From positions 1-35,670 of the IMG/VR virus record IMGVR_UViG_3300012971_000044: a DNA stretch of 35,670 bases; one strand, written 5' to 3'. Position numbers and translations under genes: made by a program. The notes under the pieces were generated by a model. The model saw nothing but the letters and a program-made list of their open reading frames with translations. It was not told the DNA's origin and searched no databases. This DNA comes from a virus (lineage: Duplodnaviria; Caudoviricetes). How positions within the stretch are numbered: the first letter of the stretch is position 1; the number at the start of each line of letters is the position of its first letter. Positions 2 to 35,522 of the stretch are shown piece after piece.

Positions 2-160
2 AAGCCGATGGGCACTCGTACTAAGTGGCCGACAAACGGGACAGTTACAAAGACTCGCACAGGTTCGATAAGAATCAGGACAACGGGTGGTTCAATGAAG
101 CCTAAGACTGGTACGATTGAGCTTGTGACCACTGGTAACACTAACGGTTGGGGATCATAA
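2..160 (+). CDS. 3' end of an upstream virion-region gene (partial)
   Basis: Open frame from the window edge (KPMGTRTKW...GWGS*). Its TAA (158-160) overlaps the next ATG as TAATG. Confidence 0.55.
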   Translation, partial: KPMGTRTKWPTNGTVTKTRTGSIRIRTTGGSMKPKTGTIELVTTGNTNGWGS

Positions 161-882
161 TGTCAGTAGTCTCGTTCAACAACTATGAGGTATCACCACG
201 TTTCGACGGCACCAAGTGGACTAAGGCTAGAATCAACGAGTCTGCTGCTAATACAGGGCCGTGGACTGTCATAGATACAGTAGACATTGATCCTGGGCCT
301 GATCCTGCACACCCGCTTGATGTCTCGTTCACGACTGATAATGCTACGCTCACTGAGGGTTGGTATCTCGTTGAGTTTATGGATGCTGCGAATAACGTAC
401 TGGAGACTGATCCCGTACTTAACGCAACTCCTGAGTCATACGAGATACTTGCTGAACTCAATGACATCAACGCACACCTTGACGGTACGGTAGTTGAAGC
501 AGACGCACAGAATACTGCGCTAATTCAGGTCAGTGTAAACAGGATAGTCAAAGCCTACTTGTCGCGTGTCGTGGATTATGCAACAATGGCGACGTGGACT
601 ACTCCTGAGACTACGCCTGACACTGTACGTGAGGCTGCATCATTCCTGATAGCGTCTCAGCTTTACTACGATCAAACCGCGAAAAGTAGCACAGTCATAG
701 AACCTACCCACTATGCACAGTGGCTATACGATCATGGGATAGCACTACTCACTGGAATTGTTGAAGGCACCATCGAGTTGCCTGACACGGTGCCTGTAAC
801 GCCTTTGGAGTCTCTCACGGCTCTTGATTACTTCCCGGTTGATGCCACAGATCGTGCATTCACGATGGGACAGAAGTTCTAG
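160..882 (+). CDS. Head-tail adaptor (Mu gp36/DUF1320-like C-terminal domain) with an extra N-terminal beta-rich domain
   Basis: C-terminal half (TPDTVREAASFLIASQLYY...LYDHGIALLTGIVEGTIEL) resembles gp36-type adaptors, and the gene precedes the neck genes. Start moved to ATG 160 (TAATG coupling). Confidence 0.6.
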   Translation: MSVVSFNNYEVSPRFDGTKWTKARINESAANTGPWTVIDTVDIDPGPDPAHPLDVSFTTDNATLTEGWYLVEFMDAANNVLETDPVLNATPESYEILAELNDINAHLDGTVVEADAQNTALIQVSVNRIVKAYLSRVVDYATMATWTTPETTPDTVREAASFLIASQLYYDQTAKSSTVIEPTHYAQWLYDHGIALLTGIVEGTIELPDTVPVTPLESLTALDYFPVDATDRAFTMGQKF

Positions 883-883
883 C

Positions 884-1417
884 ATGATCTTTGAAATATC
901 AGAGGAAGGTGCGTTTCACGTAGCTGCGCTGCTTGATATAGGTGCCAAGCAGAGCCGTGATACGATGGTAGTCATGGAGAAAATCGTAGCTGACATGATG
1001 AGAGCGGAACGAGCTACGTTCTATGCTCAGGGTCGTCGTGGTGGAGGATCGTGGAAACCACTAAAGCCAGACACCATTAGAAAGAAGGGTGTTGGCTATC
1101 AGAACATACTCAGAACTGATTTGGCTAATCCTGGGTATTCCAAAATCGAAGGATCAAATAGCGTAGATACGCTGTTTAGATCACTCACCAGACCTGGGGC
1201 ACAGTATCAAATCCTCAACGTTACCAACACTAGCATCAGGTTCGGTACTGACAGACCATACGCAGGAGCGCATCAACACGGTAGTTGGTTGAGATTCATT
1301 CCTGCTAGACCTTTCATGACTTTCCTACCATCAGATCAGGAGCGATGGAGTCGTATGATTTCTGAACATCTAATGGCTCCGTTCATAGCTGATGAGGGTA
1401 AGAGTGGTGCTAAGTGA
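884..1417 (+). CDS. Phage virion morphogenesis / tail completion protein (Mu gpG / P2 gpS-like)
   Basis: Motifs WKPLKPDT, FGTDRPYAGAHQHG and IPARPFM are typical of the family. ATG 884 follows the upstream stop. Confidence 0.8.
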   Translation: MIFEISEEGAFHVAALLDIGAKQSRDTMVVMEKIVADMMRAERATFYAQGRRGGGSWKPLKPDTIRKKGVGYQNILRTDLANPGYSKIEGSNSVDTLFRSLTRPGAQYQILNVTNTSIRFGTDRPYAGAHQHGSWLRFIPARPFMTFLPSDQERWSRMISEHLMAPFIADEGKSGAK

Positions 1418-2034
1418 CTAGTACCATAAGCGATGTGTTCGGGAGAATGCTGTCTGCCTCACAAATTGAGGAAGCTGTAGTTGCATCTATGAGAAAGTGG
1501 TATCCCACGTATCTGAAAGAACAGGAAGCGCAGATGGGATTGCCAAAATCGACGTTCCCCATACCTGAGAACTACAGCGATAGAAACAAGTTTGACATGG
1601 AAGCTCCAGAATCGTTGCCTAAGATAGTAGTCATAGCTCCTGGCACAGTTGGTGCTCCGAGAAAGAACGGGAACGGTACATATAGTGCCGTGTGGAGACT
1701 CGGTATCGGTATAGCTATAGGTGCTGAGACTGAGGTAGAAGCGAATAGATTAGTGAAAGCTTTTGGTGCTGCTGCTCGCGGGCTGATGATGCAAAGCTCA
1801 GAACTTGGAGCTTTGGGTGCAAAAGACATAATCTGGACAGACGAGCTGTATGAGGATCTTCCGATACCTAACGCTGTTCAGCTAGTCAAGGCCGCAAGTC
1901 TCTACTTCAACATAGACTTCTATGATGTCGTAACTCGCGGTCAAGGCCCGGTTGTACCGGATCAGCCTCCGTACACAGTTGGTGAGTTTGAGACAGCAGA
2001 CGTCGTACTCAACAAGGTTCCGATTACAGGTTAG
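1414..2034 (+). CDS. Putative tail terminator / neck protein
   Basis: 206 aa, GTGA overlap, located between the neck gene and the sheath. Confidence 0.55.
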   Translation: MTSTISDVFGRMLSASQIEEAVVASMRKWYPTYLKEQEAQMGLPKSTFPIPENYSDRNKFDMEAPESLPKIVVIAPGTVGAPRKNGNGTYSAVWRLGIGIAIGAETEVEANRLVKAFGAAARGLMMQSSELGALGAKDIIWTDELYEDLPIPNAVQLVKAASLYFNIDFYDVVTRGQGPVVPDQPPYTVGEFETADVVLNKVPITG

Positions 2035-2048
2035 AGAGGAGGTTACAA

Positions 2049-2291
2049 GTGGCAGACCAAGAGTATTACTTTGCAGGCGATCATGCGGATACACTTATTC
2101 AGGGCGATAAGTGTATTCCCATAGGTTCAGGTGATACGTTCACGTTGTCTCAGGAGGATCTGAACAACGGAGAAAACTCGCATATGTTTGAAGGCGAGTT
2201 TCCAGCTATTGCTGTAGTTCCCGAGCCTCAGCCTGAGGTTGCTGTTGAGGACGATACAACAACTACTCCCCCGAAAGGAGGTAAGAAATAG
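2049..2291 (+). CDS. Small acidic hypothetical protein preceding the sheath
   Basis: Strong RBS GAGGAGG before a GTG start; 80 aa. Confidence 0.65.
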   Translation: MADQEYYFAGDHADTLIQGDKCIPIGSGDTFTLSQEDLNNGENSHMFEGEFPAIAVVPEPQPEVAVEDDTTTTPPKGGKK

Positions 2292-3733: not shown

Positions 3734-3750
3734 AAGGAGGTGGCTAATAA

Positions 3751-4194
3751 ATGGCTGATGGTGGAAGGCGTACCAATCCTACCCGTCAAGATACATTCAA
3801 GGTAACGTTGAAGGTTGATGGTCTTGGCTACGGTGTATGGGATAAGAAAACTGGTGGTGAACTCGACTCTGATGAGTTGAAGTATCATCCCGGTGGTATG
3901 GCTCCCGTTATCTCTCTCGGTGGTAAGAAGCTTCCGGGTAACATCACGCTACAGCGTGAGTATGACGGAGATAACGACGGTCTGAACGTTGCTGAGCTAT
4001 TTCCTAAAGTCGGTTCTGCGCGAGCTACCGTTACGCAGAACACTCTCGACTTCGATGGAAACAGCTACGGTAACAAGATCGTGTGGAAGGGCATTCTCAA
4101 GAAGGTGCAGGTGCCTGACGTTGATTCCGAGGGTAATGCTGCTGCACTGATGGAAATTGAAATCAGTGTAGATCAGTCGCCTGTTTCTTCATGA
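3751..4194 (+). CDS. Tail tube protein (T4 gp19-like)
   Basis: 147 aa directly after the sheath, RBS AAGGAGG. Motifs YHPGG...LGGKKLPGNITLQR and DVDSEGNAAALMEIEI. Confidence 0.88.
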   Translation: MADGGRRTNPTRQDTFKVTLKVDGLGYGVWDKKTGGELDSDELKYHPGGMAPVISLGGKKLPGNITLQREYDGDNDGLNVAELFPKVGSARATVTQNTLDFDGNSYGNKIVWKGILKKVQVPDVDSEGNAAALMEIEISVDQSPVSS

Positions 4195-4211
4195 GCTAGC
4201 TAGGAGAGAGC

Positions 4212-7709: not shown

Positions 7710-9679
7710 TGCCTAAGACATCAGCCGTAGACTCCCTAGATCCTTCGCATCTCGATACTGCGAAGCAAATGCAGTTGCTTGGTGGGGACGTTGATGTAGA
7801 CGACTTCCACTTGCAAATGCGTAGAGGCGCAGGGATTCAGATTGAGTCGTCTATAACGAGTGCCATTATAGACCGCACGATTGATGGTGCCAGCTCTTTG
7901 ACTGTTACGGTTGATGATGAGGTTAATAGGACTATCCAGCTCAGTGGTATGCTTGGTCATGGTGTGGACGTGAATCTTGATGGGCTTTACTTCACTCTTG
8001 TAGGAGTGAAGAAAACGGGACGCGCTGTGACTCTCACGTTTGAGGAACGTGAAGTCAATCTGCTGCGGAAATACAAGAGTTTCATCATGGCGCAACGTTG
8101 GAGCAAAAACAACCCACAGGGAATAACTCGCGCTCAGTTCGCTTTACGCATGATCCGCGAAGTGAAAGAAGTGGATCTAAAGTGGACTATCCCTGAGCTA
8201 CACATACATCAGGCAGTAAGCGATCTTACCGCTAATCAGTATCTTATCGGGCCTGATCTACAGCCTACGCCTGGTAGTAATCAAGTGCAAGATGCCACAA
8301 CTGCCATGCAGGAACGTTCAAAGGGAATAGCCCTAGATAACAGTCAGTTGAAGGTTAGGGGCGCTTCTGCACAAAGGTGGCAAATCAAGAACGCGAACAT
8401 CATACTCCAAACGGGTGATGCTGCGAACGCTTCTCGTAAAGTCATGATTGCTTCAATGATGACTGCTATTGATGAGTCCAGCTTCTACAACTATCCCAAG
8501 GGTTATCCTAGTGGTACGGGGATATTCCAACAGAATCCTGCTTACTGGCCTGCCACAGCAAACATAGCCACTGATGCTGCTGCTTTCTTCAAGCGTTGCA
8601 AGCAGATGAATGCAGACTTCCCTAACGTGTCTCTAGCTACTCTGTGCTATCTAGTCCAACACAACAAAGCTGGTGCTTCTGCCTACGCTCCGTTCGAGCA
8701 GGAGGGTACTGCGTTCGTGAATGCTTACGATCATGTTGTAGGTGATAGCCAAGCCACACAATATGCACAGGGAGCGCAGATAGACCAGGGCACAAATCTG
8801 TTCATTCGTGGACAAATTTCAAAAGCTAAAGGTATGTCGGGTCAGTATATCATGACGCCCGAGAATAGCTGGAATTGCTTGCAGCGTATCGCGCAGGAAG
8901 TGAACTGGCGGTGTTTCATCGTAAGCGGGAGAGTCTACTTCATCAGTGAACACTGGCTATTCAAGAGCAAGCCGTTCATGACCATAAGTGAAGATTCTGA
9001 TGGGATAGACTGGATTGACTACGACTACGATGAAGGCAAGCATAAGGCGACTTGCACGATTACCGCGCATTTGAAGCGTTGGTCTGCGCCCCCTGGTAGT
9101 ACCATAGATATAACGGATATGGGGATCATCGACGGGAAGTATCTAGTCGAGGAAATCAGCAGATCGCTGTATGACACCATAGCTACGATCACAGCAAGTA
9201 AGCCACTACCTATACTTCCTGAGCCTGTGTCGCTAGGTGGTGTTCCTAGTGGTTTGGCTGGTGGTGCTGGTACATCTGTTCCACGCGATAGCTTGACTAA
9301 CGCGAATCAAGTTCAAAAGACGGTTGTGGCGTTTGCTAAGTCTCAGCTTGGTGTACCTTATCAGTGGGGTGCTGATAGTCCTGGCGTTGCGTTCGATTGT
9401 TCAGGGCTAACACAAGCTGCGTATGCCGCTGCTGGTATCTATCTACCACACTACTCAGGACACGGTGGACAGTGGGATAGAGGACAACGGATTAAGGACA
9501 GAAGCGACTTGATTCCCGCTGATCTTGTGTTCTTTGAGGGTGCCACTGATCCTCAACACGTCGGTATTTATATTGGTGGTGGCAAAATGATAGACGCACC
9601 ACATACGGGAGCTAATGTCAGAACTGAACCTGTGTGGGATTCGTTCGTAGGTGGCACACGACCGTGGGTCAGTAGGTAA
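7709..9679 (+). CDS. Baseplate hub with internal lysozyme-like domain and C-terminal NlpC/P60 peptidase
   Basis: Hub-like N and C segments; internal TAIDESS...GIFQQ; C-terminal QLGVPYQWG...FDCSGL...HVGIYIG. Confidence 0.85.
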   Translation: MPKTSAVDSLDPSHLDTAKQMQLLGGDVDVDDFHLQMRRGAGIQIESSITSAIIDRTIDGASSLTVTVDDEVNRTIQLSGMLGHGVDVNLDGLYFTLVGVKKTGRAVTLTFEEREVNLLRKYKSFIMAQRWSKNNPQGITRAQFALRMIREVKEVDLKWTIPELHIHQAVSDLTANQYLIGPDLQPTPGSNQVQDATTAMQERSKGIALDNSQLKVRGASAQRWQIKNANIILQTGDAANASRKVMIASMMTAIDESSFYNYPKGYPSGTGIFQQNPAYWPATANIATDAAAFFKRCKQMNADFPNVSLATLCYLVQHNKAGASAYAPFEQEGTAFVNAYDHVVGDSQATQYAQGAQIDQGTNLFIRGQISKAKGMSGQYIMTPENSWNCLQRIAQEVNWRCFIVSGRVYFISEHWLFKSKPFMTISEDSDGIDWIDYDYDEGKHKATCTITAHLKRWSAPPGSTIDITDMGIIDGKYLVEEISRSLYDTIATITASKPLPILPEPVSLGGVPSGLAGGAGTSVPRDSLTNANQVQKTVVAFAKSQLGVPYQWGADSPGVAFDCSGLTQAAYAAAGIYLPHYSGHGGQWDRGQRIKDRSDLIPADLVFFEGATDPQHVGIYIGGGKMIDAPHTGANVRTEPVWDSFVGGTRPWVSR

Positions 9680-9684: not shown

Positions 9685-11163
9685 ATGTCTACACTCAAAG
9701 ACCTCATATCACGTAACGGCTCAGAGCAAGGCTTAGACGGAATCGGAGCAAACTCATGGTTTGGTACTGTCGCTGCTCCTGTGCCAGTCACGATAAATGA
9801 TGAACTGTGGGTAATCATCCCTGACTTGAATATGGGTACTGAGTTTAAGTGGGGGCCTTGTCATTGGAGCAGTAACGTCATACCAAGCCTGGGCGATCCT
9901 GTTTTGGTGATATTTGATAACAGGAATCAACTGTGGGCTTCACTAGGTATACCTGAAACAGAGATGCCCATTGTATTTCCAGTAACCAGTGTGTTCGGCA
10001 GAACGGGAGCTGTCGTTAAACAAGCTGGTGACTACGTTGTAGCTGACATCACTGGTGCAGAGTCAGCAGCACACGCTGCCGCTACATATGCGCCCATCGC
10101 TAGTCCTACATTGACTGGTGATCCTAAAGCTCCCACAGCCGCGCCTGGTGACAATGATACGTCACTAGCTACAACCGCGTTTGTCCAAGCTGCTATAGCT
10201 GCATTGGCTGCGGCTGGTCTTACGACGCCTAGCGGTGTTGTGTCAGAATTTGCAGGTACAGCAGCACCGGCAGGTTGGATGCTTTGTAATGGTGCTGCTA
10301 TATCGCGTACTACGTATGCTGCTTTGTTTGCTGCGATTGGCACAGCGTATGGAGTAGGCGACGGCTCTACCACATTCAACCTACCTAATCTACAAGGACG
10401 TGTTCCTGTAGGTAAAGCAGGCTCAGGGACGTTTTTGAATCTCGGTGCTACTGGCGGTGAAGAAACACACGTCACTACAATCGCTGAAATGCCATCGCAC
10501 GATCATGGTGCCTCAGTTAGTGCTGTTTCAGCAGGAACACCAGCAGGCACAGTTTCACAGCCCACGTTTACTGGAACAGCTTCCCAGGTAACAAGCACAG
10601 AATCACAGAGCCACACGCATACGACTACAGCTACAGGCACAGTATCAAAACCAGGTATATCAGGTACAACTGCTAACGAGTCACCTGCTCATTCTCACTC
10701 AGTTACGGCGGCAGGCTCTCTTAGCGGTGGTGAGGCGTTGTTTGCTATCAACTACGCCACCAACTATACGCGCTCCGGTACAGGTATTGGTATTGCTGAC
10801 TTGAACAGCTCTACAGGGTGGCTTTCAGGTGCTACTGGTGGCACTATCGCACAGATGCACGCAGCTATTACTACCGAGCCAACTTTCACTGGTAGTGCTG
10901 TAACGTCTAGCACTTCTGCACATGGACACGGAGTGGGTACGTTAGATGTATCGCAACCTACTTTTACGGGTAATGCTGTAGCATCAGGTAATGCTTCACA
11001 AACTCATACTCATACGATTACGGCAACAGGTACAGTGTCGCAGCCTACGTTTACTGGTAGCGCGTTGGGTACACACTCACACACGGTTACTGCACAAGGT
11101 GGCGGTGGCGCGCACAACAACCTACAGCCGTATCTAGTAATGAACTACATCATCAAGACGTAA
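9685..11163 (+). CDS. Putative baseplate spike N-domain fused to a tail-collar and needle-type fibre
   Basis: N-terminal WVIIPDL...PSLGDPVLVIFD resembles the gp5/gpV OB-fold and sits in the spike position. It is followed by a collar domain (APAGWMLCNG...TTFNLPNLQGRVPVG), HxH repeats and HNNLQPY..NYIIKT. Confidence 0.75.
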   Translation: MSTLKDLISRNGSEQGLDGIGANSWFGTVAAPVPVTINDELWVIIPDLNMGTEFKWGPCHWSSNVIPSLGDPVLVIFDNRNQLWASLGIPETEMPIVFPVTSVFGRTGAVVKQAGDYVVADITGAESAAHAAATYAPIASPTLTGDPKAPTAAPGDNDTSLATTAFVQAAIAALAAAGLTTPSGVVSEFAGTAAPAGWMLCNGAAISRTTYAALFAAIGTAYGVGDGSTTFNLPNLQGRVPVGKAGSGTFLNLGATGGEETHVTTIAEMPSHDHGASVSAVSAGTPAGTVSQPTFTGTASQVTSTESQSHTHTTTATGTVSKPGISGTTANESPAHSHSVTAAGSLSGGEALFAINYATNYTRSGTGIGIADLNSSTGWLSGATGGTIAQMHAAITTEPTFTGSAVTSSTSAHGHGVGTLDVSQPTFTGNAVASGNASQTHTHTITATGTVSQPTFTGSALGTHSHTVTAQGGGGAHNNLQPYLVMNYIIKT

Positions 11164-12678: not shown

Positions 12679-13938
12679 ATGGCAAACAAGGCTATAACAC
12701 CAACTACTCCGGTTCTAGCTACCTCCACTGTAGGTGGAAGGATAGCACTTGTATGGCCTGGTTTTGGGCCATACTTGGTACCATACAAAGCACCAACTGC
12801 ACCAGCCACACCAGCTCTACCTAGTACAGATGACTTCGCTCACGCTGTTTACAATCAGCTGAACCTCGACAATCTAGTCGGTACTGACGACTGGATAAAC
12901 TTGCTGACAGATCCGTTGTTCTTGAACGGTGTTGATGGTTGGACTTGTGATGCTAACTACACTCTTGCACAGTCCACTGAGCAGAACCTGTTTGGTCAGT
13001 ATTCGCTGAAAAGCTTAAAGGCATCAGCCGGTGCTACTAACGGTAATGTCTACTGTCCTGTGCAGGTTTTGCAACCGGGTACTGTCTATACAGCGAGTGT
13101 CTACGTGTATATCCCATCTGCCTTCCCTGGTAGCTTTGTGTCGGTTGGTGCAGATACTACGTTTACGGGTGCTGTTATAGACAGCACGAATGCCAATGCT
13201 AACATGGCGACACGTAATAAATGGCAGAGGATATGGATTACGATACAAGCGGCAGTTGGAGACGTATCAGGACAACCGATCATAGTACGCTCCGACAACT
13301 CGATAATCTCTGGCGCCAGTAGTGCTATCTACATAGCTAGCCCACAGCTAGAGATAGCACCTACGCCTAGTGCATTCACTGATAACGTACTGTTCGCGCC
13401 AGCCAAGGTAATCACGCAATCGTTCATCGGCTCTATTGGTGCAGCTTTCGAGCAGATGGATGATCTTGCACACGCTAATCCTCAGTGGTCTAGCCTGCTT
13501 GACGTGAACAGGATACCTGACGAGGGATTGCCGTGGTTTGGTCAATTCACTGGTACGATAGTTGATCCTAATCTCGGTTTCAACGATCAAAGACAGCAGA
13601 TACGTGCTAACCCAGGTTGGCATCGTGGCACGAAGGACGCTATCGCACTTGCTGTGCGGCCTTTGCTAACGGGAACCCAAGCCGTACAAATCGTAGAAAG
13701 AGATACAACCCCGTATCACTTCAACATCGCTACTTATGGTGCCGAAACGCCTGATCCCAACTTGGTAACGGTAGCCGTAAACAGAGTCAAACCAGCAGGT
13801 CTACAGTTTTCCTATACTGTGATACCTGGCTCGCCTGGAACAGCTACGACATACGCTAACCTATACTTCGACTTCCTATCGTATCAGGTAATCATGGATG
13901 AGAAGACGACGTATCAGGACGTTTACCTGCATCCGTAA
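12679..13938 (+). CDS. Baseplate wedge (P2 gpI-like) with inserted carbohydrate-binding-like module
   Basis: C-terminal LDVNRIPDEGLPWFGQFTG...HRGTKDAI...VKPAG is gpI-like. Middle NLLTDPLF...PGTVYTASVYV...WQRIWIT...PQLE is CBM4/9-like. Confidence 0.75.
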   Translation: MANKAITPTTPVLATSTVGGRIALVWPGFGPYLVPYKAPTAPATPALPSTDDFAHAVYNQLNLDNLVGTDDWINLLTDPLFLNGVDGWTCDANYTLAQSTEQNLFGQYSLKSLKASAGATNGNVYCPVQVLQPGTVYTASVYVYIPSAFPGSFVSVGADTTFTGAVIDSTNANANMATRNKWQRIWITIQAAVGDVSGQPIIVRSDNSIISGASSAIYIASPQLEIAPTPSAFTDNVLFAPAKVITQSFIGSIGAAFEQMDDLAHANPQWSSLLDVNRIPDEGLPWFGQFTGTIVDPNLGFNDQRQQIRANPGWHRGTKDAIALAVRPLLTGTQAVQIVERDTTPYHFNIATYGAETPDPNLVTVAVNRVKPAGLQFSYTVIPGSPGTATTYANLYFDFLSYQVIMDEKTTYQDVYLHP

Positions 13939-13954: not shown

Positions 13955-15607
13955 ATGCTAACAAGCGCAAGACGTTCAATCTCTTACCCGAATCCTGATA
14001 GGTCTGATAGACCTGACGTTCCGTTGCATATCGGGAACATCATTACTGCTATTGATAATGATGTTATGTTTGTCAATGGAACGGATGCAGCTAGAGTAGC
14101 TGCTTCTCATCAGGTGGGTGGCGGTAAGTTCTGGTGGGCGACTGATACGCAGCTTATGTGGTATGATGATGGTACTACATGGAGACAGCTTGGCTACGCA
14201 GCGTTGGCATCACCAGCTTTCACTGGAACGCCTACCGCACCCACAGCAGCGACCGCTACCAATACAACGCAGATTGCCACTACTGCGTTTGTCAAGGCGC
14301 AGAACTATGCTGCTACAGTATTCGGCAGGAGCGGCCCAACTATAACGGCTCAGGCTGGTGACTATACAGCGGCACAAGTAACTAACGCTGCTGATAAGTC
14401 GAGTGCCGCTATTCAAACCTTCACAGGTGAGGTTGATGCAACTGCCCACGGTGCTACTGGTTTAACTGGTGCTACAGCCGCTAGTCGTTACGTTGGTGGT
14501 ACAGCAGCTAGTGCTCCCGTAAGCGGAACGTTTGCTAAGGGTGACTTCGTTGTCACGCAAACGGGACATTTGCTCATATGCACTACTGCTGGTACTCCCG
14601 GTACATGGACTGATGCTGGTAGCGTGTCGAACTCAGTTAATACGGTGTTTGGACGTGGTGGAGCAGTAGTCGCGCAGACTGGTGACTATACAGTAGCTCA
14701 GGTAACTGGCGCTGCTCCATTAGCATCACCTGTATTCACTGGTGATCCGCAAGCACCAACTCCTGCGGCTGGTGATAACGATACGAGTATCGCTACGACA
14801 GCGTTTGCTCGTAGCCTCATGCCTGCTGGTGTAATTCTACCATATGGTGGTACTGCTGCACCTAACGCAGAATGGTTGCTGTGTGATGGTACTGCTAAGT
14901 CACGCACGACTTACGCAGCTTTGTTTGCAGCCATAGGTACAGCATATGGAGCGGGTGACGGCAGCACAACGTTTAACATACCAAACCTGCAAGGCCGTGT
15001 GCCTGTTGGTAAAAACACAGGAACGTTCGCTACGTTAGGTGCTACAGGTGGCGAGGAAGCTCACCAACTGACTAGTAACGAGTTAGCTGCTCACACGCAT
15101 ACGTTCACTGGTACGGCTATGGGTACGCATAACCATACTTTCACTGGTTCAGCTATGAGTGCACATCATCACGACATTTCGGTTGGTGCAGTTCCAACGC
15201 ACTCACATACAGTGAGCGGTACATTTGAAAACCACAGGCACCATTTCAGCTATCTGCAAACTCCGACATTCCTCACCTATCGTACTGATGTGACAATGAC
15301 CGCCGGTAATAAAGCTCTCACTGACATCGGTGGATTCACAGGAGCTTCAGGTGGTATTACGGGGCCGATCTATACGGGTACTGTGGATACTGGCGCTTCT
15401 GGCCTTTCAATATCAGGAACAGCAGGGCCTGTTTCAGCACCAATGCCTACTCTTACCATTCCTGATGTTTCAGCCGGTACACCCGCTGGTACTAATACGG
15501 CTGTTTCAGCAGGAACGCCCGCAGGTACAAACAGTCCAACAGGAAACGATCTAGCACACAATAACCTACAGCCATACGTAGTCACGAACTACATCATCAA
15601 GACATAG
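13955..15607 (+). CDS. Tail fibre with collar domain and HxH needle tip
   Basis: Repeated ASPxFTGxPxAPT...IATTAF and VFGRxG..AQxGDY modules, collar domain, multiple HxH motifs; RBS AAAGGAGG. Confidence 0.88.
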   Translation: MLTSARRSISYPNPDRSDRPDVPLHIGNIITAIDNDVMFVNGTDAARVAASHQVGGGKFWWATDTQLMWYDDGTTWRQLGYAALASPAFTGTPTAPTAATATNTTQIATTAFVKAQNYAATVFGRSGPTITAQAGDYTAAQVTNAADKSSAAIQTFTGEVDATAHGATGLTGATAASRYVGGTAASAPVSGTFAKGDFVVTQTGHLLICTTAGTPGTWTDAGSVSNSVNTVFGRGGAVVAQTGDYTVAQVTGAAPLASPVFTGDPQAPTPAAGDNDTSIATTAFARSLMPAGVILPYGGTAAPNAEWLLCDGTAKSRTTYAALFAAIGTAYGAGDGSTTFNIPNLQGRVPVGKNTGTFATLGATGGEEAHQLTSNELAAHTHTFTGTAMGTHNHTFTGSAMSAHHHDISVGAVPTHSHTVSGTFENHRHHFSYLQTPTFLTYRTDVTMTAGNKALTDIGGFTGASGGITGPIYTGTVDTGASGLSISGTAGPVSAPMPTLTIPDVSAGTPAGTNTAVSAGTPAGTNSPTGNDLAHNNLQPYVVTNYIIKT

Positions 15608-18610: not shown

Positions 18611-18784
18611 CTATCTTATCACCTTCTTTCCTATAAGGTTTTTCTCGCGATTGACGAGCATGGGCTTGGTGTATCTACAATTCTCCCGTTTACACCAAGC
18701 ATAATCATCTACTGTCCAAGGCGTTACATCAGTTCTGATGCCCCACCTATGAAACCCTAACTTGCAGAGTATATGCCCAATCAT
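18611..18784 (-). CDS. Small Cys/His protein
   Basis: MIGHILCKLGFHRW...CKRENC; start 18784 by ATGA overlap. Confidence 0.65.
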   Translation of the reverse strand: MIGHILCKLGFHRWGIRTDVTPWTVDDYAWCKRENCRYTKPMLVNREKNLIGKKVIR

Positions 18785-19005
18785 TTTCTTCCCATTTTTT
18801 CCCACGTCCATCCTGTTCCGCCCGGATTGTCGTAGTAGCTAGGATAGCCAGACTTGATCTGTTCTGATTCTGGCCTGGTATTACCACCCAAGTAAAGCTT
18901 TTCTCCTGACAGAGTTCTAATCCAAGTACGACGAGCGCGGTATTCCTTAGGACGCTGTATAGCTGAGATTAACTGCCTCAGCCGTATGCGTTCCTCGTAT
19001 GTCAT
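18781..19005 (-). CDS. Hypothetical protein
   Basis: 74 aa with ATGA overlaps at both ends. Confidence 0.6.
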   Translation of the reverse strand: MTYEERIRLRQLISAIQRPKEYRARRTWIRTLSGEKLYLGGNTRPESEQIKSGYPSYYDNPGGTGWTWEKMGRK

Positions 19006-19505
19006 TCTTCTGTGTTACGCCAGTATTCGTGCATTACGGCGAACGGTTCCTTAGCTAGAGCCTCGTTGTGTTTGTATCCTGGCCCGAAAGTAAACCACTG
19101 GAACAGATGCCTTAACGCATCTATGCCGTGAGGTACTTTTGTAGCCATACCTCGCACTATATAGCCATGCTGCTTTAGCATCAGGTTCGTATAGTAGCCC
19201 TTGCCCTGTGCCGGGGTTTGTAAGAAACAGGCGCATTGGTGATCTGCGATTTCTGCGTACAATCGCGCAACTCCGATTAGCTGAATTGGGAAGTATTCTA
19301 TTCCCGTTGCAGCCTTTTGATGTCCTCCCCGAAACTCGAAACTCTCTATAACGATGTATCTCGGTTCCAGTTCTTTGAGTCGTCTCCATAGATCATCTAC
19401 CTCGTCCGTTGCTTGAAAGACTATGTAGTGAAGTTTCCCGTGTTTGATCCTCGCTTGTGCGTACCCCGTCATTATCCCCGGATCTATCGCTATTACTGTC
19501 GTCAT
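19002..19505 (-). CDS. RuvC-like Holliday junction resolvase
   Basis: VIAIDPGIMTGYA, IVIESF, HGIDALRH: RNase H-fold acidic residues. Confidence 0.8.
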   Translation of the reverse strand: MTTVIAIDPGIMTGYAQARIKHGKLHYIVFQATDEVDDLWRRLKELEPRYIVIESFEFRGGHQKAATGIEYFPIQLIGVARLYAEIADHQCACFLQTPAQGKGYYTNLMLKQHGYIVRGMATKVPHGIDALRHLFQWFTFGPGYKHNEALAKEPFAVMHEYWRNTEE

Positions 19506-19708: not shown

Positions 19709-22197
19709 GCGTACTCACTCATGTGTCCCCAATCGTGTCCGATTGATAGGTCTGCTGTATATGGGAAGTCCCAACCTAGCGACTTCTTTGGTGCAAGCTG
19801 CATTAACTCTAGAACCTTCTCAGCTACCTCAGTCGCGTACTTCTTCTTGACGTTGATGAGGATAGAATCGTGGACAGTTACGCGAGGCTGCGCGAACTGC
19901 CACATATCGGATTCTACCAACCAGTCCACAAGATCACACAATGCCCAGTTGGTGATGTTGGCTGCAATGTTCTGGGGCTTGAAGTTGATGAATTGTTTGA
20001 CAAGGTGATCACGTGCGGATTCATCAGCGGGTATGACATAGCAGCGTCTTTTGTGGCCGAAGGGAGATTGTATCTCTCCTTTGGTAAGACACTCATTCTC
20101 TATCTCCTTCGTCCAAGCCCAAACGTCAGGAAAACGATCCCACCAGAAGTCAATGTATTCTTGCGCTTCCTTCTGGGGCATATGGTATAGTTGAGCAAAA
20201 CTGTATGCACTTTGCCAGTAGGCGACACCGAAGTTGATGTTCTTCGCTCTAACGTACTGCTCATACGTGTAGTCCTCTCCATAGAACTGAGCCGCTACTT
20301 CCTTATGGAGTGATCTATCAGTGTCGAGATAAATGGACTGAAGATTGGTATCTCCTGAGAGTACGGCAATCGTTCTAAGCTCCGCTTGAGATAAGTCTGC
20401 GCTAAGGAATACGCACCCGGAGTCAGGGACAAATGGAGTTCTAATGTTTGGGAGTCCTTCTTTTGGTCTGGTGATGTTTTGGAGATTAGGGCGACTTGAT
20501 GAGAGCCTGCCACTTTCCGTTCCGTGAATCTTAAAGTCAGAGTAAATTCGTCCATTGTAAGCTTTTAACACCAGCCCTTCTAGGTAGTTACCACGCTGCT
20601 TATCGAGAGCCTTGAAGTCATCGTAAAGCTGCGTGACTTGCACTACGCGCTTAGGATGCACGACGGTGGTATCTACCTTGTACGTTCCCGTTTGAAGTAT
20701 CTGCTCACGAACGAACTGATCCGTCGATTGCTTACCTTGTCGCTCAACCTTGGGACGCATCAGTTGATGCTCTAACTTCCACTCGTCGTAATACAGCGTG
20801 TTCATCTGCTTAGGCGAATTGAAGTTGATCGCACGTCCTACCAGACCTTCAACGTCCCTCCGATAAGCTTCAAGTTTGGGCCAGACTTCCGCTTCAAGGA
20901 TATTGCAAGCGGCTTCTGAATCGTAAGCAACACCTTCCAGTTCGATCCTAGCGAGAGCTTCTGAGAGTCGTATGAGCATAAGTCTATACGGCTTATCCCA
21001 AACGTTATCGTTCTTTGCCCTAGCCGCAAGGATTTGGAAAAGACTGATCGTTCCAGCTGTATCAAATCCGTTGTATTCGTAAAGATCAAGCTTTGCCCGT
21101 TTGATAGATCCAGTTGCGCTTTCAAGGAACTGTCCCGTTTTCTTGAAGTGTCTGACAGATTGCGGTTCATATTTAGGCCACCCTAACTCGTCTTTTAGCA
21201 GCCACTCTAGTGAGTGACCACCTGCTCCACTTTCAGGATCACCTGGACGTTCATCCAAGCACCACGAAAGCAGCATACTATCTTCGTCTACTCTTGCCGG
21301 GATTCCATGTGATCTGAGAACTTTAACATCATACTTTCCATTGTGCCAAAGATACGAGGCTTCCGAGGCTTGAAATCCGTAGAGTTCACGAAGATATTGT
21401 AGCCTCCATTCCACATTTCCACAGGGCACAACGCCGAACACCACTGACCGCTCAGGTCTAATACTGAAACCAGCGCATGAGATTCTGCCGGTATGACTCG
21501 GATCTTTAGCTGAATCTCTACTGACTTCGATGTCGGATCCAATGATAACTCCTTTACCGAGGTTTGAGATTTCATTAAGAACCTTCTCAGCCAATTCATT
21601 AGCTTCCTCCAAGTCATCTACCCACTTCACCTTAGGCATTTTAGGCTCAGGTAGCGGATCAATGGCTAGACGAAAATCTCTCACAAGCTCGGGAAATGTA
21701 TGATCGTCACGAAGCACAACAGCGGGATTATTTGTGATAATCACCCGTTGTCTCTTTCCACTCCCGTTCACTCGTTCATGCACGTAGCCGCGATTGGCGC
21801 TAATGTTCGATTCACCTTGAACCGTCCAAGCTGCCTCACGACCACAAGCAATCACGGTGTCACAGTCTTTAATCTCATGTTCAAGACGTGGCTGACAGTG
21901 CATTATAGCCTTAGCAAATCCCTGCTCAGTACCATCTGATTGACAGAGAACTGCATTTGTGGCTAACACGTCATCCCTGGACGTTCCATGAAGCTGTAGT
22001 AAGTGGTCTAATACTCTACCCGACGGGCCTGCAAAGCTTTTGCCGTTTAACCCCTCGTAATAACCGGGTGAGCGACTTACGACCGCTGTACGGGCCTGTG
22101 GTGGCCCTGTGGTGGCTGCAAACGACCTATTGTAGAGCGGGCATCCGTCGCATTCAGCGTATGGTGCCTTAGGTGTGACTTTATTCTTAGCCGACAT
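19705..22197 (-). CDS. Family A DNA polymerase with N-terminal uracil-DNA-glycosylase-like domain and 3'-5' exonuclease
   Basis: UDG-like: CDGCPL, FAGPSGRVLD, TNAVLC, NPAVVLR. Exonuclease: DIE, HNGKYD, YNGFD. Polymerase: TESGRLSS, DLSQAELR, AKNINFG, VHDS. Confidence 0.95.
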   Translation of the reverse strand: MSAKNKVTPKAPYAECDGCPLYNRSFAATTGPPQARTAVVSRSPGYYEGLNGKSFAGPSGRVLDHLLQLHGTSRDDVLATNAVLCQSDGTEQGFAKAIMHCQPRLEHEIKDCDTVIACGREAAWTVQGESNISANRGYVHERVNGSGKRQRVIITNNPAVVLRDDHTFPELVRDFRLAIDPLPEPKMPKVKWVDDLEEANELAEKVLNEISNLGKGVIIGSDIEVSRDSAKDPSHTGRISCAGFSIRPERSVVFGVVPCGNVEWRLQYLRELYGFQASEASYLWHNGKYDVKVLRSHGIPARVDEDSMLLSWCLDERPGDPESGAGGHSLEWLLKDELGWPKYEPQSVRHFKKTGQFLESATGSIKRAKLDLYEYNGFDTAGTISLFQILAARAKNDNVWDKPYRLMLIRLSEALARIELEGVAYDSEAACNILEAEVWPKLEAYRRDVEGLVGRAINFNSPKQMNTLYYDEWKLEHQLMRPKVERQGKQSTDQFVREQILQTGTYKVDTTVVHPKRVVQVTQLYDDFKALDKQRGNYLEGLVLKAYNGRIYSDFKIHGTESGRLSSSRPNLQNITRPKEGLPNIRTPFVPDSGCVFLSADLSQAELRTIAVLSGDTNLQSIYLDTDRSLHKEVAAQFYGEDYTYEQYVRAKNINFGVAYWQSAYSFAQLYHMPQKEAQEYIDFWWDRFPDVWAWTKEIENECLTKGEIQSPFGHKRRCYVIPADESARDHLVKQFINFKPQNIAANITNWALCDLVDWLVESDMWQFAQPRVTVHDSILINVKKKYATEVAEKVLELMQLAPKKSLGWDFPYTADLSIGHDWGHMSEYA

Positions 22198-25162: not shown

Positions 25163-25164
25163 AA

Positions 25165-25237
25165 TAGGCCCGGTAGGAGTCGAACCTACGACCGTCGCAT
25201 TATGAGTGCGCTGCTCTAACCACTGAGCTACGGGCCT
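25165..25237 (-). tRNA. tRNA with CAT anticodon, probably tRNA-Ile2 (lysidine type); CCA not encoded
   Basis: Acceptor AGGCCCG/CGGGCCT; D arm GCTC-AGTGGTTA-GAGC; anticodon loop CTCATAA; T arm GTAGG-TTCGACT-CCTAC. It lacks the initiator GGG/CCC anticodon stem. Confidence 0.9.
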
Positions 25238-25280
25238 AACCAACCTGTTTACTCTCTCCCTACAGGATTTGTACCTCTAT

Positions 25281-27532: not shown

Positions 27533-28362
27533 TCACCTTCTTTCTTCTCGTCTTTAGTCTCAGGCTCTAGTTTCACGCCTTCTACGATGTCCCACATTGA
27601 AGTGAGACTTGGGTTCTCTAGTGAGTTACCGAGAACCTTTGTCCTATCTTTACCTAGGACACGATCCGAACCTACAACTTGTAGCGTTCGTGTTATATCA
27701 CCTCCCCGATTTCGGGCACGATAGTAGCCCACAACGTCAAAGAAACCTGGGACTTCGCGCACAAGTTTGCCAGCAAAGCCCGGACGATACTTGTCAGGTT
27801 CGTTGTCCCGTTGATCTATACCCAAAGCACCTGTGCAAATGAAGTGGCATGGCAAGTCTTTGAAAGCGCGGGTGATGAGGCGGATATGATTTCTGACAAT
27901 TCCCCACTCTCTAGGCGAGGGAACGTCAATATCAACACGATCCGGGTTACGGTTATACGCATCTTTCATCACCTTCCGCATATCAAGATCAGCTAGCTCA
28001 GTCAATGAATCAATGCCCATTGACTTCCACGGCAGTTTCCCGTTTTCTATGCTATGGTACAGCATATTGTATTTGTCCTCAACCTCAGAGATTGAGCGTA
28101 CCTTGATGATGTCGATACCTGGCTTATCACGCAACGTCATCATGCCACCCTCAACGTCGAAGATAAGCATAGGTCGCAAACGCTCATCATCCTCTGCTGT
28201 ACCAAGAAAATACGTCTTACCTACACCCGGTTCACCGTAGAGAAATATGTTCATCCACTCGACAATCTCCACAGGTGATGTAACTTGCAGTTTCGCACGT
28301 AGCTCGTCACTACCAGCATCTTTCACCTGTGCGGGTTTTCTAGTTCGAGCCGCTGTTGCCAT
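27529..28362 (-). CDS. Sak4-like AAA ATPase (recombinase)
   Basis: FLYGEPGVGKT, FDVEGG, IDSLTE, FFDVVGY, KDR; ATG 28362 after GGAGG. Confidence 0.87.
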   Translation of the reverse strand: MATAARTRKPAQVKDAGSDELRAKLQVTSPVEIVEWMNIFLYGEPGVGKTYFLGTAEDDERLRPMLIFDVEGGMMTLRDKPGIDIIKVRSISEVEDKYNMLYHSIENGKLPWKSMGIDSLTELADLDMRKVMKDAYNRNPDRVDIDVPSPREWGIVRNHIRLITRAFKDLPCHFICTGALGIDQRDNEPDKYRPGFAGKLVREVPGFFDVVGYYRARNRGGDITRTLQVVGSDRVLGKDRTKVLGNSLENPSLTSMWDIVEGVKLEPETKDEKKEGE

Positions 28363-28624
28363 TCGTTTCCTCCACTCTACCCGCAACTTGAACGTGGTAT
28401 CCGTTGTCCACACAAATCTTTGAGAGTTGATACATAGCGTGTGGAGTGCAGAGAGCTATCCCGTTTACAGTATACATGGCTTTAGCGATGTTACTAGGAC
28501 AGAACGTACAATAGCCAGGACGTGTGAGTACGCCAAGCGGCCCTTTGTGTTCAAGTGATTGCGTCGTCCTGTTCTGTATCGCTTTCAGGCGTTGTATCGT
28601 CTTGTCGTCCAGCGGCACTATCAT
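28340..28624 (-). CDS. Hypothetical Zn-binding protein
   Basis: CTFC...CTPH; start preceded by AAGAGGGG. Confidence 0.6.
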   Translation of the reverse strand: MIVPLDDKTIQRLKAIQNRTTQSLEHKGPLGVLTRPGYCTFCPSNIAKAMYTVNGIALCTPHAMYQLSKICVDNGYHVQVAGRVEETNGNSGSN

Positions 28625-30083: not shown

Positions 30084-30138
30084 AAAAACTTCTCCCGTTC
30101 CTGCGATTTCCCGCTAATTGGCGGGACGTGAATGGACT

Positions 30139-30352: not shown

Positions 30353-30354
30353 AG

Positions 30355-30673: not shown

Positions 30674-30692
30674 CATCACCGCCTTAACGATT

Positions 30693-31407: not shown

Positions 31408-31618
31408 TTTTCTCCCGTTTCTTTTGTTCTATCACTTCGATCAATCCTGTGCGGCGGTTATGTTGAAAGAGGCGCCAAGCAAGATAACGTGTAACTTCTC
31501 CACGATTATTGATGTTGCCTTTGAATCCATCATTGAGAACGAGAGTCTTAACCTCATGCCATTCTAGCATCCCTGACATGAAGTTAGCCTCATCTACGTT
31601 ATCTTGCTTAGTCGCCAT
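31397..31618 (-). CDS. Hypothetical protein
   Basis: MATKQDN..., ATG 31618 after GGAG, overlapping the helicase stop. Confidence 0.6.
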   Translation of the reverse strand: MATKQDNVDEANFMSGMLEWHEVKTLVLNDGFKGNINNRGEVTRYLAWRLFQHNRRTGLIEVIEQKKREKNVS

Positions 31619-33311: not shown

Positions 33312-33745
33312 CGTTCACCATCCAATCTCCCGTTAGGATATATGATTGTGTGTGGTACTTTACGCTTTCGCGCAAACCTGTACGTTGCCCAAGTACCTGA
33401 ACGTAATACCTCAGTATCATTCTTTGGGCCAACTATGATATAATCGCTTGCTCGCACAATGTCCTGATTACGAACAGAGTAGGTCTGTGGTGTTTCCATT
33501 AGATCACCACGACATAACGCACGATGCTTACTCTGGACAGGTGGGAATATGCGAATCTTGTAGCCGATACCCTTAGCTACGTCGTGACAGATTGCATCCC
33601 AACCTTCACAATCACCATGTGCGAGCCAGCACTCACCCTTAGGAGAGTACCGATTGTAAATCTTTTGGAGTAGGACACCAAGTTGTCTAGCCTGTGCGGG
33701 TGTTATCTTCTGGACGCTTCGCGTACCAGTCACACCTACCGTTAT
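33278..33745 (-). CDS. SLOG/DprA-like Rossmann-fold protein (possible ATA start)
   Basis: (I)TVGVTGTR, HGDCEGWD, RNQDIV, RSGTWAT. Confidence 0.75.
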   Translation of the reverse strand: MTVGVTGTRSVQKITPAQARQLGVLLQKIYNRYSPKGECWLAHGDCEGWDAICHDVAKGIGYKIRIFPPVQSKHRALCRGDLMETPQTYSVRNQDIVRASDYIIVGPKNDTEVLRSGTWATYRFARKRKVPHTIIYPNGRLDGERWRQVYQDSQS

Positions 33746-34131
33746 TGCGACAACTCGCTTAGCACTATCGCTAGTGCTGTCGTCTTGGTGTGTCCTTTCT
33801 TCTGATACAGGTATATGTAGCGACGACTGTATTTCCTACACTCCTTTGTCTTACGACAAAACACAGACGCGCGTGGGCCGTGTTTGATAACACCGCCGCA
33901 TACTACACACGTAGGTCTGTGCCCGTTTTTGGGATCAGCAAGAATGCTAATCGCTTGTGATACATTATCTGCTTGTCCCGTTACTATATAGTGTTCTAGC
34001 GAGTTAGCATTTATCGCTAGATACCCTACGTGTGGATTGTTAAAGACGACTGGCTTACTACAGTTCTCACACCAGCCTGTAAACTCGTCTAGTTGATCTA
34101 CTGACGTACCACAGTTCGGACATACTTCCAT
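33742..34131 (-). CDS. Multi-CxxC zinc-finger protein
   Basis: CPNC, CENC, CVVC, C..C. ATG 34131 is preferred because TTG 34164 lies inside a hairpin. Confidence 0.65.
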   Translation of the reverse strand: MEVCPNCGTSVDQLDEFTGWCENCSKPVVFNNPHVGYLAINANSLEHYIVTGQADNVSQAISILADPKNGHRPTCVVCGGVIKHGPRASVFCRKTKECRKYSRRYIYLYQKKGHTKTTALAIVLSELSQ

Positions 34132-34143
34132 CTGTGATAACTG

Positions 34144-34245
34144 TGGCGGGTAGGGGGAGCGCAAATGCCGCAGCTTCTGCGCTACTCCCCTAATCCGCCA
34201 GGGTCAGCATTTCGGTGGAAACGGGAGAAACCACCGAGCGCGACG
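34144..34245 (-). ncRNA. Putative two-hairpin small RNA or leader RNA
   Basis: Begins just after promoter 34251-34279. Hairpin 1: TCGGTGG/CCACCGA with loop TTTCTCCCGTTT. Hairpin 2 (34144-34200): TGGCGG, TAGGGG and AGCGCAGA stems. Confidence 0.55.
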
Positions 34246-34453
34246 AACTGATGGTAGCACAAAAGTTCGTCTGCGTCAAGGGGATATTCGTGACACTTTC
34301 ACGACTTACGTTATCAGTGTCAAGTCTCCACCACCAACGAAGCTCACCATCAACGATAAGCTCCACAGGAATATAGCCACGATCGAATAGACTATCTACA
34401 TAGTCCTCGCCCCAAGTGGCTATTTCCTTCTTTATGTATTCTTCTGCTGTCAT
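34190..34453 (-). CDS. Hypothetical protein
   Basis: RBS AAGGGGG; the N-terminal half looks protein-like, the tail overlaps the promoter and RNA element. Confidence 0.6.
   Translation of the reverse strand: MTAEEYIKKEIATWGEDYVDSLFDRGYIPVELIVDGELRWWWRLDTDNVSRESVTNIPLTQTNFCATISSSRSVVSPVSTEMLTLAD
34251..34279 (-). promoter_or_regulatory. Sigma70-type promoter overlapped by an 8-bp inverted repeat
   Basis: TTGACG-17 nt-TACCAT with TG extension. GACGAACT (34242-34249) and AGTTCGTC (34264-34271) flank the -10. Confidence 0.7.
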
Positions 34454-34469
34454 ATTAACAGCCCCCTTA

Positions 34470-34669
34470 GTAGAACGGTCATGTTATTGAGATACGCATT
34501 CTTCCTGATAAGAGGTAACGTAACTCATCCGGCCCGTTCTACACTTTATGGGTGTTGTGTCCCATACTGATACTCACTATTACTTAGGTTCCTATGCCTC
34601 ATGGGGAGAATAGGAGAATAGTGAGTATCAGTATGAGAGTCACGCAGGTGCCCTACGTGACTCCCATAC
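34470..34669 (-). ncRNA. Highly structured intergenic element (three long hairpins)
   Basis: Stems 34631-34669 (18 bp, two G-U on the - strand), 34563-34581/34617-34635 (19 bp perfect) and 34470-34478/34534-34542. Confidence 0.55.
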
Positions 34670-34684
34670 CTTAACTGAGTTAGA

Positions 34685-34984
34685 TCACTCAGCCTCAGCA
34701 CCGACAAGCTCGCGCACCATCGCGGAGTTGATGAGGAACACATCATCACCATCCACGATAACGTCGATCATATCGGCACCATCAGGAGCTTCCTTCTTAT
34801 CCTTCGCATTCTCGAAGCCCTGCTTGATAGTCGTAGCCTTCTTATCCTTCAACTGAGGCCACGTTTCCTTCACGTCCACGCCGTTCTCACCAGACTCCAG
34901 AAGCTCTGCGAGAAAAGCAGTATACAGACCCTTCGTGCGCCGCTTGGCATAGATTGCGGCGATCTTATCACTATCGAGTGCCAT
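34685..34984 (-). CDS. Hypothetical protein
   Basis: ATG 34984 after AAAGGAAG; an alternative TTG 35071 follows AACGGGAGG. Confidence 0.7.
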   Translation of the reverse strand: MALDSDKIAAIYAKRRTKGLYTAFLAELLESGENGVDVKETWPQLKDKKATTIKQGFENAKDKKEAPDGADMIDVIVDGDDVFLINSAMVRELVGAEAE

Positions 34985-35042
34985 GAACTTCCTTTCGTTT
35001 TTGTTGTCGTTGTGTGTTGCTTGTGGTTCTGTAGCTGGTTTG

Positions 35043-35522
35043 CTACTTGGCTTTCGTCTTTGACGTGCCAATCCTTCTTACCTCCCGTTCTAGTCGAGTT
35101 ATACGTAACTCGAAGTCTTGCAATACCTTCGCTACGTCTAATCCTCCCTTCTCTAGCGACTCTCTCCAGGCTGCAAGAGACTTGACACGCCTCTCAACCT
35201 CTACCACCATTGTAGCAGACGAGGTGCGTTCTGTCAAGTGTTCCGGCGGGAGAAGATCACCCGCTGGCAATTCTCCCGTTATCTCGATTATGGTAGGTTG
35301 GTGTCTATTGCCAACTTGAATGATACGTACAACATCATACGCTAGCAGTAACCGTTTGATCCGCGTATAGCTTGCGTTACTCGCTCCCGTTTGTTTAAAC
35401 AGGTCGCCGATCTTACCAGTGAATACCTGCTGACCATGCTCATTCATTTCGGACTGATCCCGCAGTAGCTCAAACATCATACGAGCCTGAGCAAGCCAAG
35501 CAGGTTCAGTTGCGTTAGCCAC
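35043..35522 (-). CDS. Putative winged-HTH protein with C-terminal coiled coil
   Basis: IGDLFKQTGASNASYTRIKRLL...VVRIIQVG resembles a winged HTH; the C-terminus is heptad-like. Confidence 0.55.
   Translation of the reverse strand: MANATEPAWLAQARMMFELLRDQSEMNEHGQQVFTGKIGDLFKQTGASNASYTRIKRLLLAYDVVRIIQVGNRHQPTIIEITGELPAGDLLPPEHLTERTSSATMVVEVERRVKSLAAWRESLEKGGLDVAKVLQDFELRITRLEREVRRIGTSKTKAK
35209..35237 (-). promoter_or_regulatory. Near-consensus sigma70-type promoter inside a CDS
   Basis: TTGACA-17 nt-TACAAT with TG extension. Confidence 0.75.

Follow-up and report, generated by a model that had tools for sequence, protein, structure and literature searches.

IMG/VR virus record IMGVR_UViG_3300012971_000044 is a 35.7-kb tailed-phage fragment. 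The stretch analysed, all 35,670 nucleotides of it (the window), carries tail, baseplate and lysis genes on the plus strand and replication genes (PolA, a RepB-like primase-helicase, SSB, Sak4, an exonuclease and an SNF2 helicase) on the minus strand. The heptamer AACGGGA recurs throughout its coding strands, and the phage probably encodes a trans-acting small RNA (sRNA) that represses its own early mRNAs by pairing a loop-borne seed with this word. A promoter consensus, a predicted fold, a loop complementary to the word, an excess of the word on the mRNA strand, its presence at early but not late starts and the parallel change of word and loop among relatives were computed directly. Because the loop exactly complements the word and both change together in relatives, one RNA likely turns down many early phage messages at once.

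AACGGGA occurs 23 times in the window, 21 times on the locally coding strand (binomial p 6.6e-5), against a mean of 2.45 and a maximum of 6 in 100 dinucleotide shuffles. A preliminary description of this DNA had located the same copies, with every coordinate exact and none missing, and its claims of a strand bias, of an enrichment over about two expected copies and of the use of several reading frames are borne out. It had named a codon- and dipeptide-preserving null model as the check that could refute the enrichment, which survives: the 54 hand-picked open reading frames (ORFs) hold 20 sense copies, compared with a mean of 2.15 (maximum 7 in 300 shuffles) when synonymous codons are shuffled genome-wide and 3.08 (maximum 10 in 300) when they are shuffled within each gene. 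Both nulls preserve all proteins, and hence all dipeptides; AACGGGA is the first-ranked heptamer under each, and the antisense word within ORFs stays at background (2 vs 0.9-1.2). Similar excesses are obtained with automatic gene calls (18 vs 1.7) and with an order-3 Markov model of the sense strand (21 vs 3.3). All three reading frames are occupied within genes (6 AAC GGG, 10 ACG GGA and 4 CGG GA), and the word fills 18/94 of the coding positions where the peptide permits it, vs 36/1920 in relatives of other seed classes. A codon or dipeptide artefact was thus ruled out as the cause by the protein-keeping shuffles and the permitted-position comparison.

Two antisense copies, at 3903 and in a hairpin loop at 34220, had also been reported. 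Both are real, but the second is no stray and appears to be the source of the pattern. It lies in a promoter-led, two-hairpin sequence (Table 1) that is likely expressed as a small RNA of ~107 nt. In all nine AACGGGA-rich records first examined, an antisense copy occupies the orthologous place, next to the ORF 34190 homologue; it sits in a hairpin loop that follows a TTGAC-N17-TGnTAnnnT promoter on the early-arm strand at a distance of 15-30 nt, and a longer second hairpin comes next. This layout recurs in relatives. A SigA consensus promoter at the same place, recognized from sequence only, and an orthologous promoter-led RNA are found in 32/37 records examined (31 distinct RNAs), the five others being three fragments that end near the region, one record without the marker gene and one complete record (G020). 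CTCCCGTT occupies the hairpin-1 loop in 15 records, and the -35 TTGAC and the TGnTAnnnT are invariant across 15 aligned records, four of which (G032, G034, G035 and G036) were found by a pattern containing these elements and the seed, so that only their target counts are independent. The promoter-plus-seed scan of viral contigs gave 119 mostly unrelated loci, which were retained only if they had family proteins or shared this layout.

The predicted RNA folds at -53.9 kcal/mol (z -5.63), a stability reached by 0/200 shuffles, and its two hairpins fold independently. The 5' arm of hairpin 1 is only 32% identical across the 15 records; paired with their own 3' arms these stems average -13.9 kcal/mol, compared with -6.4 when arms are swapped between records, and 2/210 swaps reach the own-arm mean. 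Of the two strands, that of the promoter gives the better fold in 13/15 and 10/10 records and has more G.U pairs (59/544 vs 23/503). These strand differences bear on the notion, barely credible to us, that a CsrA- or RegB-like RNA-binding protein reads AACGGGA in mRNAs and that the opposite-strand hairpin is a decoy. The sense-strand bias and Shine-Dalgarno overlap of the word do fit the kind of recognition practised by T4 RegB and CsrA. However, the conserved promoter makes the complement rather than the word, the G.U pairs favour that same strand, and a decoy would need opposite-strand transcription, for which a weak promoter-like match is present in only 2/15 records; moreover, each of five or more unrelated seeds would require a re-specified protein. 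Database comparison offers no known family for the RNA: Rfam returned only a tRNA in the window at gathering threshold, with generic hairpin matches far below it, neither the 6C nor the C4 Rfam model is matched, no similar DNA was found among cultured phages, and a sequence-only model of the RNA gave only weak matches in other clades.

A further argument for the sRNA comes from relatives, which are metagenomic records of 55-61 kb; among cultured phages, the polymerase and primase are <30% identical over most of the protein. AACGGGA is present in 16-33 copies in 5/5 records of a first relative set; in a second set, 3/18 records hold 17-22 copies and the remaining 15 hold 0-7. Copies in the AACGGGA-rich records cluster in the early arm, often directly before start codons. 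Across the family, the complement of the record's own loop is the most enriched word, or among the most enriched, for 24/31 distinct RNAs, representing at least six seeds: AACGGGA in 15 records, TACGGGA in 3, GACGACA/ACGACGA in 2, and AAACCGC, AACCGCT, AAGGGAG and AGCACAG in 1 each. The observed and expected counts are 17 vs 3.0 for AAACCGC in G015, 20 vs 5.3 for GACGACA in G017, 16 vs 5.2 for AAGGGAG in G018, 7 vs 1.4 for AACCGCT in G029, 40 vs 12.3 for AGCACAG in G011, and 11 vs 3.4, 10 vs 3.4 and 8 vs 3.6 for TACGGGA in G012, G033 and G028. The table of seeds by records is near-diagonal, with AACGGGA at 10-31 copies in its own clade and at background (0-5) elsewhere; a record's own loops outscore every RNA of another class in 18/31 records and all but one in 6 more. 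The seed sits in the loop of the long hairpin in some clades, and G020 is rich in GACGACA (25 vs 9.5), yet its RNA was not found.

The same comparison bears on whether AACGGGA is a polar DNA signal, such as a priming site of the RepB-like primase-helicase, a Chi-like site or a stoperator bound by a winged-helix protein, a group of readings to which we give very little credence. Its polarity matches both transcription and GC skew, the seed classes agree with the primase tree, PF16793 is found in the primase family, AEP primases are able to recognise short words (accessible text of PMC8718748), and Chi-rich phages exist (accessible text of PMC12315714). Winged-helix-like proteins are present in the phage. 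Such readings nevertheless fail on spacing, on promoter overlap and on orientation: word-free gaps of 12.5-20.7 kb in 6 near-complete relatives match Okazaki-priming spacing poorly, the word falls in 0/66 extended -10 promoters, and its orientation does not flip at the hairpin. Four candidate host genomes contain it at 0.6-1.6x the reversed-word control, with no evident strand skew among the contigs listed. Above all, these readings leave the complementary, covarying, promoter-led RNA loop in six seed classes unexplained. The primase-site and Chi readings were dropped on the host word counts, the wide gaps, the lack of a flip and the conserved loop. The preliminary description had inferred selection on the nucleotide word and had offered an sRNA seed, an RNA-binding-protein site or a Chi- or stoperator-like site; the evidence favours such selection, the sRNA seed is the best supported and the other options fit poorly, since the word is absent from promoters, leaves large gaps, does not flip at the hairpin and tracks the RNA loop across clades.

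The placement of targets is likewise consistent with control of early mRNAs by the sRNA. In the AACGGGA clade (15 records), 90/699 early-arm starts and 0/283 late-arm starts have the word in the 24 nt preceding them, and in 10 other-seed genomes 2/973 starts do. Orthologous leaders carry their own clade's word before the helicase (8/24), exonuclease (6/23), ORF 34685 (5/25) and primase (4/23), and the SSB and Sak4 leaders carry it in 0/23 each. Coding regions of 10 records hold 87 early-arm copies vs 15.8 expected, with the antisense word at background. The seed is strict: AACGGGA is found 244 times against 47.1 expected in the pooled records, and all 21 words that differ from it at one position stay at or below about 1.3-fold. 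Immediately 5' of the word (-1), A is found at 100/186 sites where the loop predicts it vs 16/58 otherwise (p 0.0005). Seeds unlike the Shine-Dalgarno sequence also show a strong early-arm bias (13/17, 15/20 and 11/11 sites). In the window, the four initiation-region sites (35083, 33328, 31413 and 30093) are among the strongest predicted duplexes with the loop; the small early genes richest in start-proximal sites in relatives fall beyond its contig end.

Host SigA polymerase would transcribe the sRNA alongside the early mRNAs, and it would consequently be expected to accumulate during infection. Its first loop, the exact complement of AACGGGA(G), would then pair with the words in phage mRNAs. 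At ribosome-binding sites (RBSs), a duplex of 8-12 bp would cover the Shine-Dalgarno GGGAG and block 30S binding, and within coding regions pairing may hasten breakdown of the polycistronic mRNA. Overall, early and replication genes would be braked with a delay, by way of a timer or of a check on over-replication. Repression is expected from pairing over the Shine-Dalgarno by analogy with the mycobacterial 6C RNA (accessible text of PMC6486639), and pairing is probably Hfq-free, as in that system: 6C needs at least five G-C pairs and no chaperone, providing an actinobacterial precedent for chaperone-free pairing by a C-rich loop (same source).

Several observations weigh against this proposal. 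Most window sense sites (17/21) are inside genes, where the bare 7-bp duplex is predicted at only about -11 kcal/mol and so should not stop ribosomes, and late-arm coding regions of the 10 records are enriched as well (36 vs 14.6). G.U variants of the word are not enriched, and no flanking position except -1 covaries with the loop. Start proximity (82/244 sites lie 3-14 nt before the called start) is inflated for GGGAG-containing seeds because start calls used a Shine-Dalgarno score, of which the early/late and clade contrasts are independent; non-Shine-Dalgarno seeds place few sites near starts (2/17, 3/20, 2/11 and 0/7), and AAGGGAG, the G018 seed, is itself Shine-Dalgarno-like. Seven of the 31 distinct RNAs (G009, G010, G013, G016, G019, G021 and L111) show no enriched loop complement, G016 having a related loop with AAACCGC at 12 vs 4.0. 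AGCACAG is elevated family-wide, so that the G011 case carries less weight. A quick primase tree groups the seed classes into clades, and the 24 matching records therefore stand for some five or six independent changes. When the RNA region was aligned with MAFFT, RNAalifold gave no consensus pairs, as MAFFT failed to register the divergent stems, and stem covariation therefore rests on the per-sequence folds and the swap test. Finally, the 10 nt after hairpin 2 contain only 2-7 U (15 records), a weak tail for a terminator.

That coding-region majority and the missing wobble variants keep in view a version, in our estimate rather improbable, in which the RNA serves as a guide, in the manner of a microRNA, for a phage or host nuclease or a termination factor; this protein would recognise a strict Watson-Crick seed of 7 nt and cut transcripts or terminate them. 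The strictness of the pooled signal, the genic location of most sites and their quick turnover (the window's site is kept at only 2/124 aligned coding positions) agree with such a design. However, no RNase-, Hfq- or Argonaute-like Pfam match was found among the 54 window ORFs and 26 proteins of relatives, two modelled neighbours (ORF 34685 and the Zn-finger ORF) gave no informative fold match, and helper-free loop-seed pairing has the precedent already cited. More broadly, microRNA-like phage silencing, in which a short RNA, probably assisted by a protein, recognises a strict Watson-Crick seed of 7 nt written 10-30x into the phage's own mRNAs, is a minority view that we would still entertain seriously.

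The buried start of the Zn-finger gene keeps in view another version, itself quite unlikely: the hairpins may be the 5' leader of this gene, sensing total phage mRNA as AACGGGA transcripts bind the loop, whose occupancy would alter Zn-finger translation or read-through. An in-frame start lies inside hairpin 2 in 13/15 AACGGGA records, the U tail is weak, and a sensor requires site density rather than position, in keeping with the turnover of coding sites. By contrast, the two hairpins fold independently of each other, the Zn-finger gene is well separated from the RNA in other-seed clades, and the early/late difference at starts is left unexplained.

Table 1. Coordinates of the predicted RNA locus and of AACGGGA sense sites in the window
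Feature	Position	Strand	Remarks
SigA-type promoter	34251..34279	-	TTGACG (-35 at 34279), 17-nt spacer, extended TG, TACCAT
Predicted two-hairpin small RNA, ~107 nt	34138..34244	-	ends inferred from sequence
Hairpin 1, seed-presenting	34207..34241	-	predicted fold and arm-swap test
12-nt loop UUUCUCCCGUUU containing seed CUCCCGUU	34219..34230	-	antisense copy at 34220-34226
Hairpin 2, long stem, likely terminator or 3' stabiliser	34138..34206	-	holds in-frame Zn-finger ORF start 34164
Zn-finger protein gene behind the RNA	33742..34164	-	adjoins RNA in AACGGGA clade; 0.7-1.6 kb downstream in others
Small conserved ORF	34190..34453	-	variable 3' end overlaps promoter and hairpin 1
RBS target, 11 nt before TTG 35071 (conserved winged-helix-like protein)	35083..35089	-	also in end of ORF 35043-35522; predicted duplex with loop -15.2 kcal/mol
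Target 16 nt before SNF2 helicase start TTG 33311	33328..33334	-	
RBS target, 5 nt before ATG 31407	31413..31419	-	predicted duplex -17.8 kcal/mol
Target at likely RBS of exonuclease gene (inferred ATT start 30083)	30093..30099	-	predicted duplex -17.7 kcal/mol
Coding-region site, winged-helix ORF 35043-35522	35385..35391	-	
Coding-region site, winged-helix ORF 35043-35522	35274..35280	-	
Coding-region site, Zn-finger ORF	33976..33982	-	
Site in small ORF 28340-28624	28459..28465	-	
Coding-region site, Sak4-like annealing protein	28038..28044	-	
Coding-region site, Sak4-like annealing protein	27806..27812	-	
Coding-region site, DNA polymerase A	21762..21768	-	
Coding-region site, DNA polymerase A	21133..21139	-	
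Coding-region site, DNA polymerase A	20686..20692	-	
Coding-region site, resolvase-like ORF	19302..19308	-	
Coding-region site, small ORF 18611-18811	18684..18690	-	
Coding-region site, tail fibre	14560..14566	+	late arm
Coding-region site, tail protein	13668..13674	+	late arm
Coding-region site, collar/tail protein	10002..10008	+	late arm
Coding-region site, NlpC/P60 tail protein	8014..8020	+	late arm
Coding-region site, ORF 1414-2034	1666..1672	+	late arm
Sense site at contig edge	35..41	+	late arm

Structure searches with proteins near the RNA were uninformative, the best Z being 3.1 for the Zn-finger ORF and 5.7, to winged-helix and R3H chains, for ORF 34685. A strong conserved promoter inside the winged-helix gene (35209-35237, minus strand) drives ORF 34685, and the gap between this ORF and ORF 34190 contains a long hairpin (34546-34660) with generic Rfam hairpin matches; relatives have long hairpins in the same gap. 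G003, G008 and G037 share a hairpin-2 loop sequence whose complement is not among their top enriched words. The exonuclease gene (28818-30083, minus strand) likely uses a non-canonical ATT start at 30083, ~95 codons upstream of the first ATG: the frame is open from this codon, no ATG, GTG or TTG precedes the conserved region, and relatives begin with ATG or GTG at about this position.

Other words also depart from expectation. A second sense-strand word in the window, ACAGCAG, is found 20 times vs 4.0-5.7, with no matching loop seen. CACAG-containing words and their complements (GCACAGG, CCCACAG and CCTGTGC) are enriched in many of G001-G019, whatever the seed, and are possibly a DNA-level site. 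Restriction-like words are strongly avoided in window coding regions, including GGTCC (0 vs 25) and GGACC (1 vs 22), as are CTGCAG (0 vs 19), CAGCTG (2 vs 23) and ATCGAT, GATATC, TTCGAA and GAAGAG (each 0 vs 11-14).

The replication arm and RNA are paired with contractile-tail genes in 7/19 near-complete records and with a different, non-sheath tail module in 11/19, and no integrase was seen among proteins shared by relatives. The only host clue is a SpaA/prealbumin-fold surface protein gene (25281-26915, minus strand), whose product has its best match (65%) in a Gaiellaceae metagenome-assembled genome and weakly suggests a Gaiellaceae host. None of 151 genomes from G024's order gave a match to the primase profile, so that the host assignment rests on this one auxiliary gene, which adjoins a tRNA-Met(CAT) at 25164-25238 (minus strand).

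The predicted RNA shares features with several known systems, each described here as far as the accessible text of its source goes. Like the 6C/B11 sRNA of mycobacteria, it opposes a C-rich unpaired loop to G-rich RBSs with many targets in a high-GC Gram-positive setting without Hfq (PMC6486639, which cites S. aureus RNAIII as a comparable loop-pairing RNA). Unlike 6C, it would be phage-encoded and would target the phage's own genome, has one CCC loop rather than two C6 loops, and has its seed swapped wholesale between clades, including for seeds that are not C-rich. The C4 antisense RNA of P1/P7 resembles it in that phage RNA loops pair with phage mRNA at an RBS and loop changes shift specificity between relatives (PMC5320573). 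C4, however, is a three-stem, RNase P-processed RNA with two loops (a' and b') that confers immunity in temperate phages, and the present RNA has two independent hairpins, one loop of which matches 10-30 sites genome-wide, mostly within genes. Stoperators of cluster A phages such as L5 are likewise asymmetric sites, >20 in number and oriented with transcription, but are repressor-bound 13-mer DNA sites in promoters and short intergenic gaps (PMC9283540), unlike a 7-mer absent from promoters, found mostly in coding regions and matched by a complementary RNA loop. LLS and other Chi-rich lambdoid phages similarly carry about one polar word per 2 kb, mostly genic and denser in one genome part (PMC12315714). 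LLS-type phages are, in the accessible text, without recombination genes of their own, in contrast to the window, which encodes a Sak4-like protein, an SSB and an exonuclease; unlike Chi, AACGGGA changes with a phage RNA loop, and it shows no evident polar excess in candidate hosts.

The SAS of cluster K mycobacteriophages is also an asymmetric word at the RBS of non-structural genes in one orientation, with one opposite-strand copy in K1 phages (accessible text of PMC3203893). SAS is 13 bp long and almost confined to starts, in contrast to the 7-8 nt of AACGGGA and its mostly genic location, and the two have no sequence similarity. The 29.6 kb of Adephagia examined contain 16 SAS matches, of which the sole opposite-strand one (JF704105.1, ~58682-58694; L376:28683-28695) is borne by the 10-nt loop of a long hairpin; this hairpin occupies a gap without annotation, behind promoter-like sequence. 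The SAS-complementary loop is exact in only 2/7 cluster K phages checked (Adephagia and Mdavu), partial in Amohnition and Tierra and absent in Pharb, Pixie and Oscar, so this parallel is a lead; the structured region of the hairpin is found in 193 mycobacteriophage records.

Literature searches, with most subscription papers and supplements outside their coverage, found no report of a phage sRNA with genome-wide targets in its own genome, and the phage antisense RNAs in the accessible text of one review act on one phage gene or on host genes (PMC12197685). In the present family, one RNA seems to have moulded the entire coding sequence of the phage, regulator and targets having changed in step throughout a large group of soil phages, and this loop/word covariation is a kind of evidence that seed predictions usually lack. 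The sRNA reading offers a concrete explanation for polar over-represented phage words otherwise filed as Chi-like or primase sites, and a lone antisense copy is a simple place to look for the source of such words. It also becomes testable in M. smegmatis what recognises the cluster K SAS, which was left unanswered in 2011, and a microRNA-like design may also explain that word. As there have been at least five changes of seed, with the genome adapting to them, seed classes could, if the microRNA-like reading is true, act as RNA-based immunity groups between related phages.

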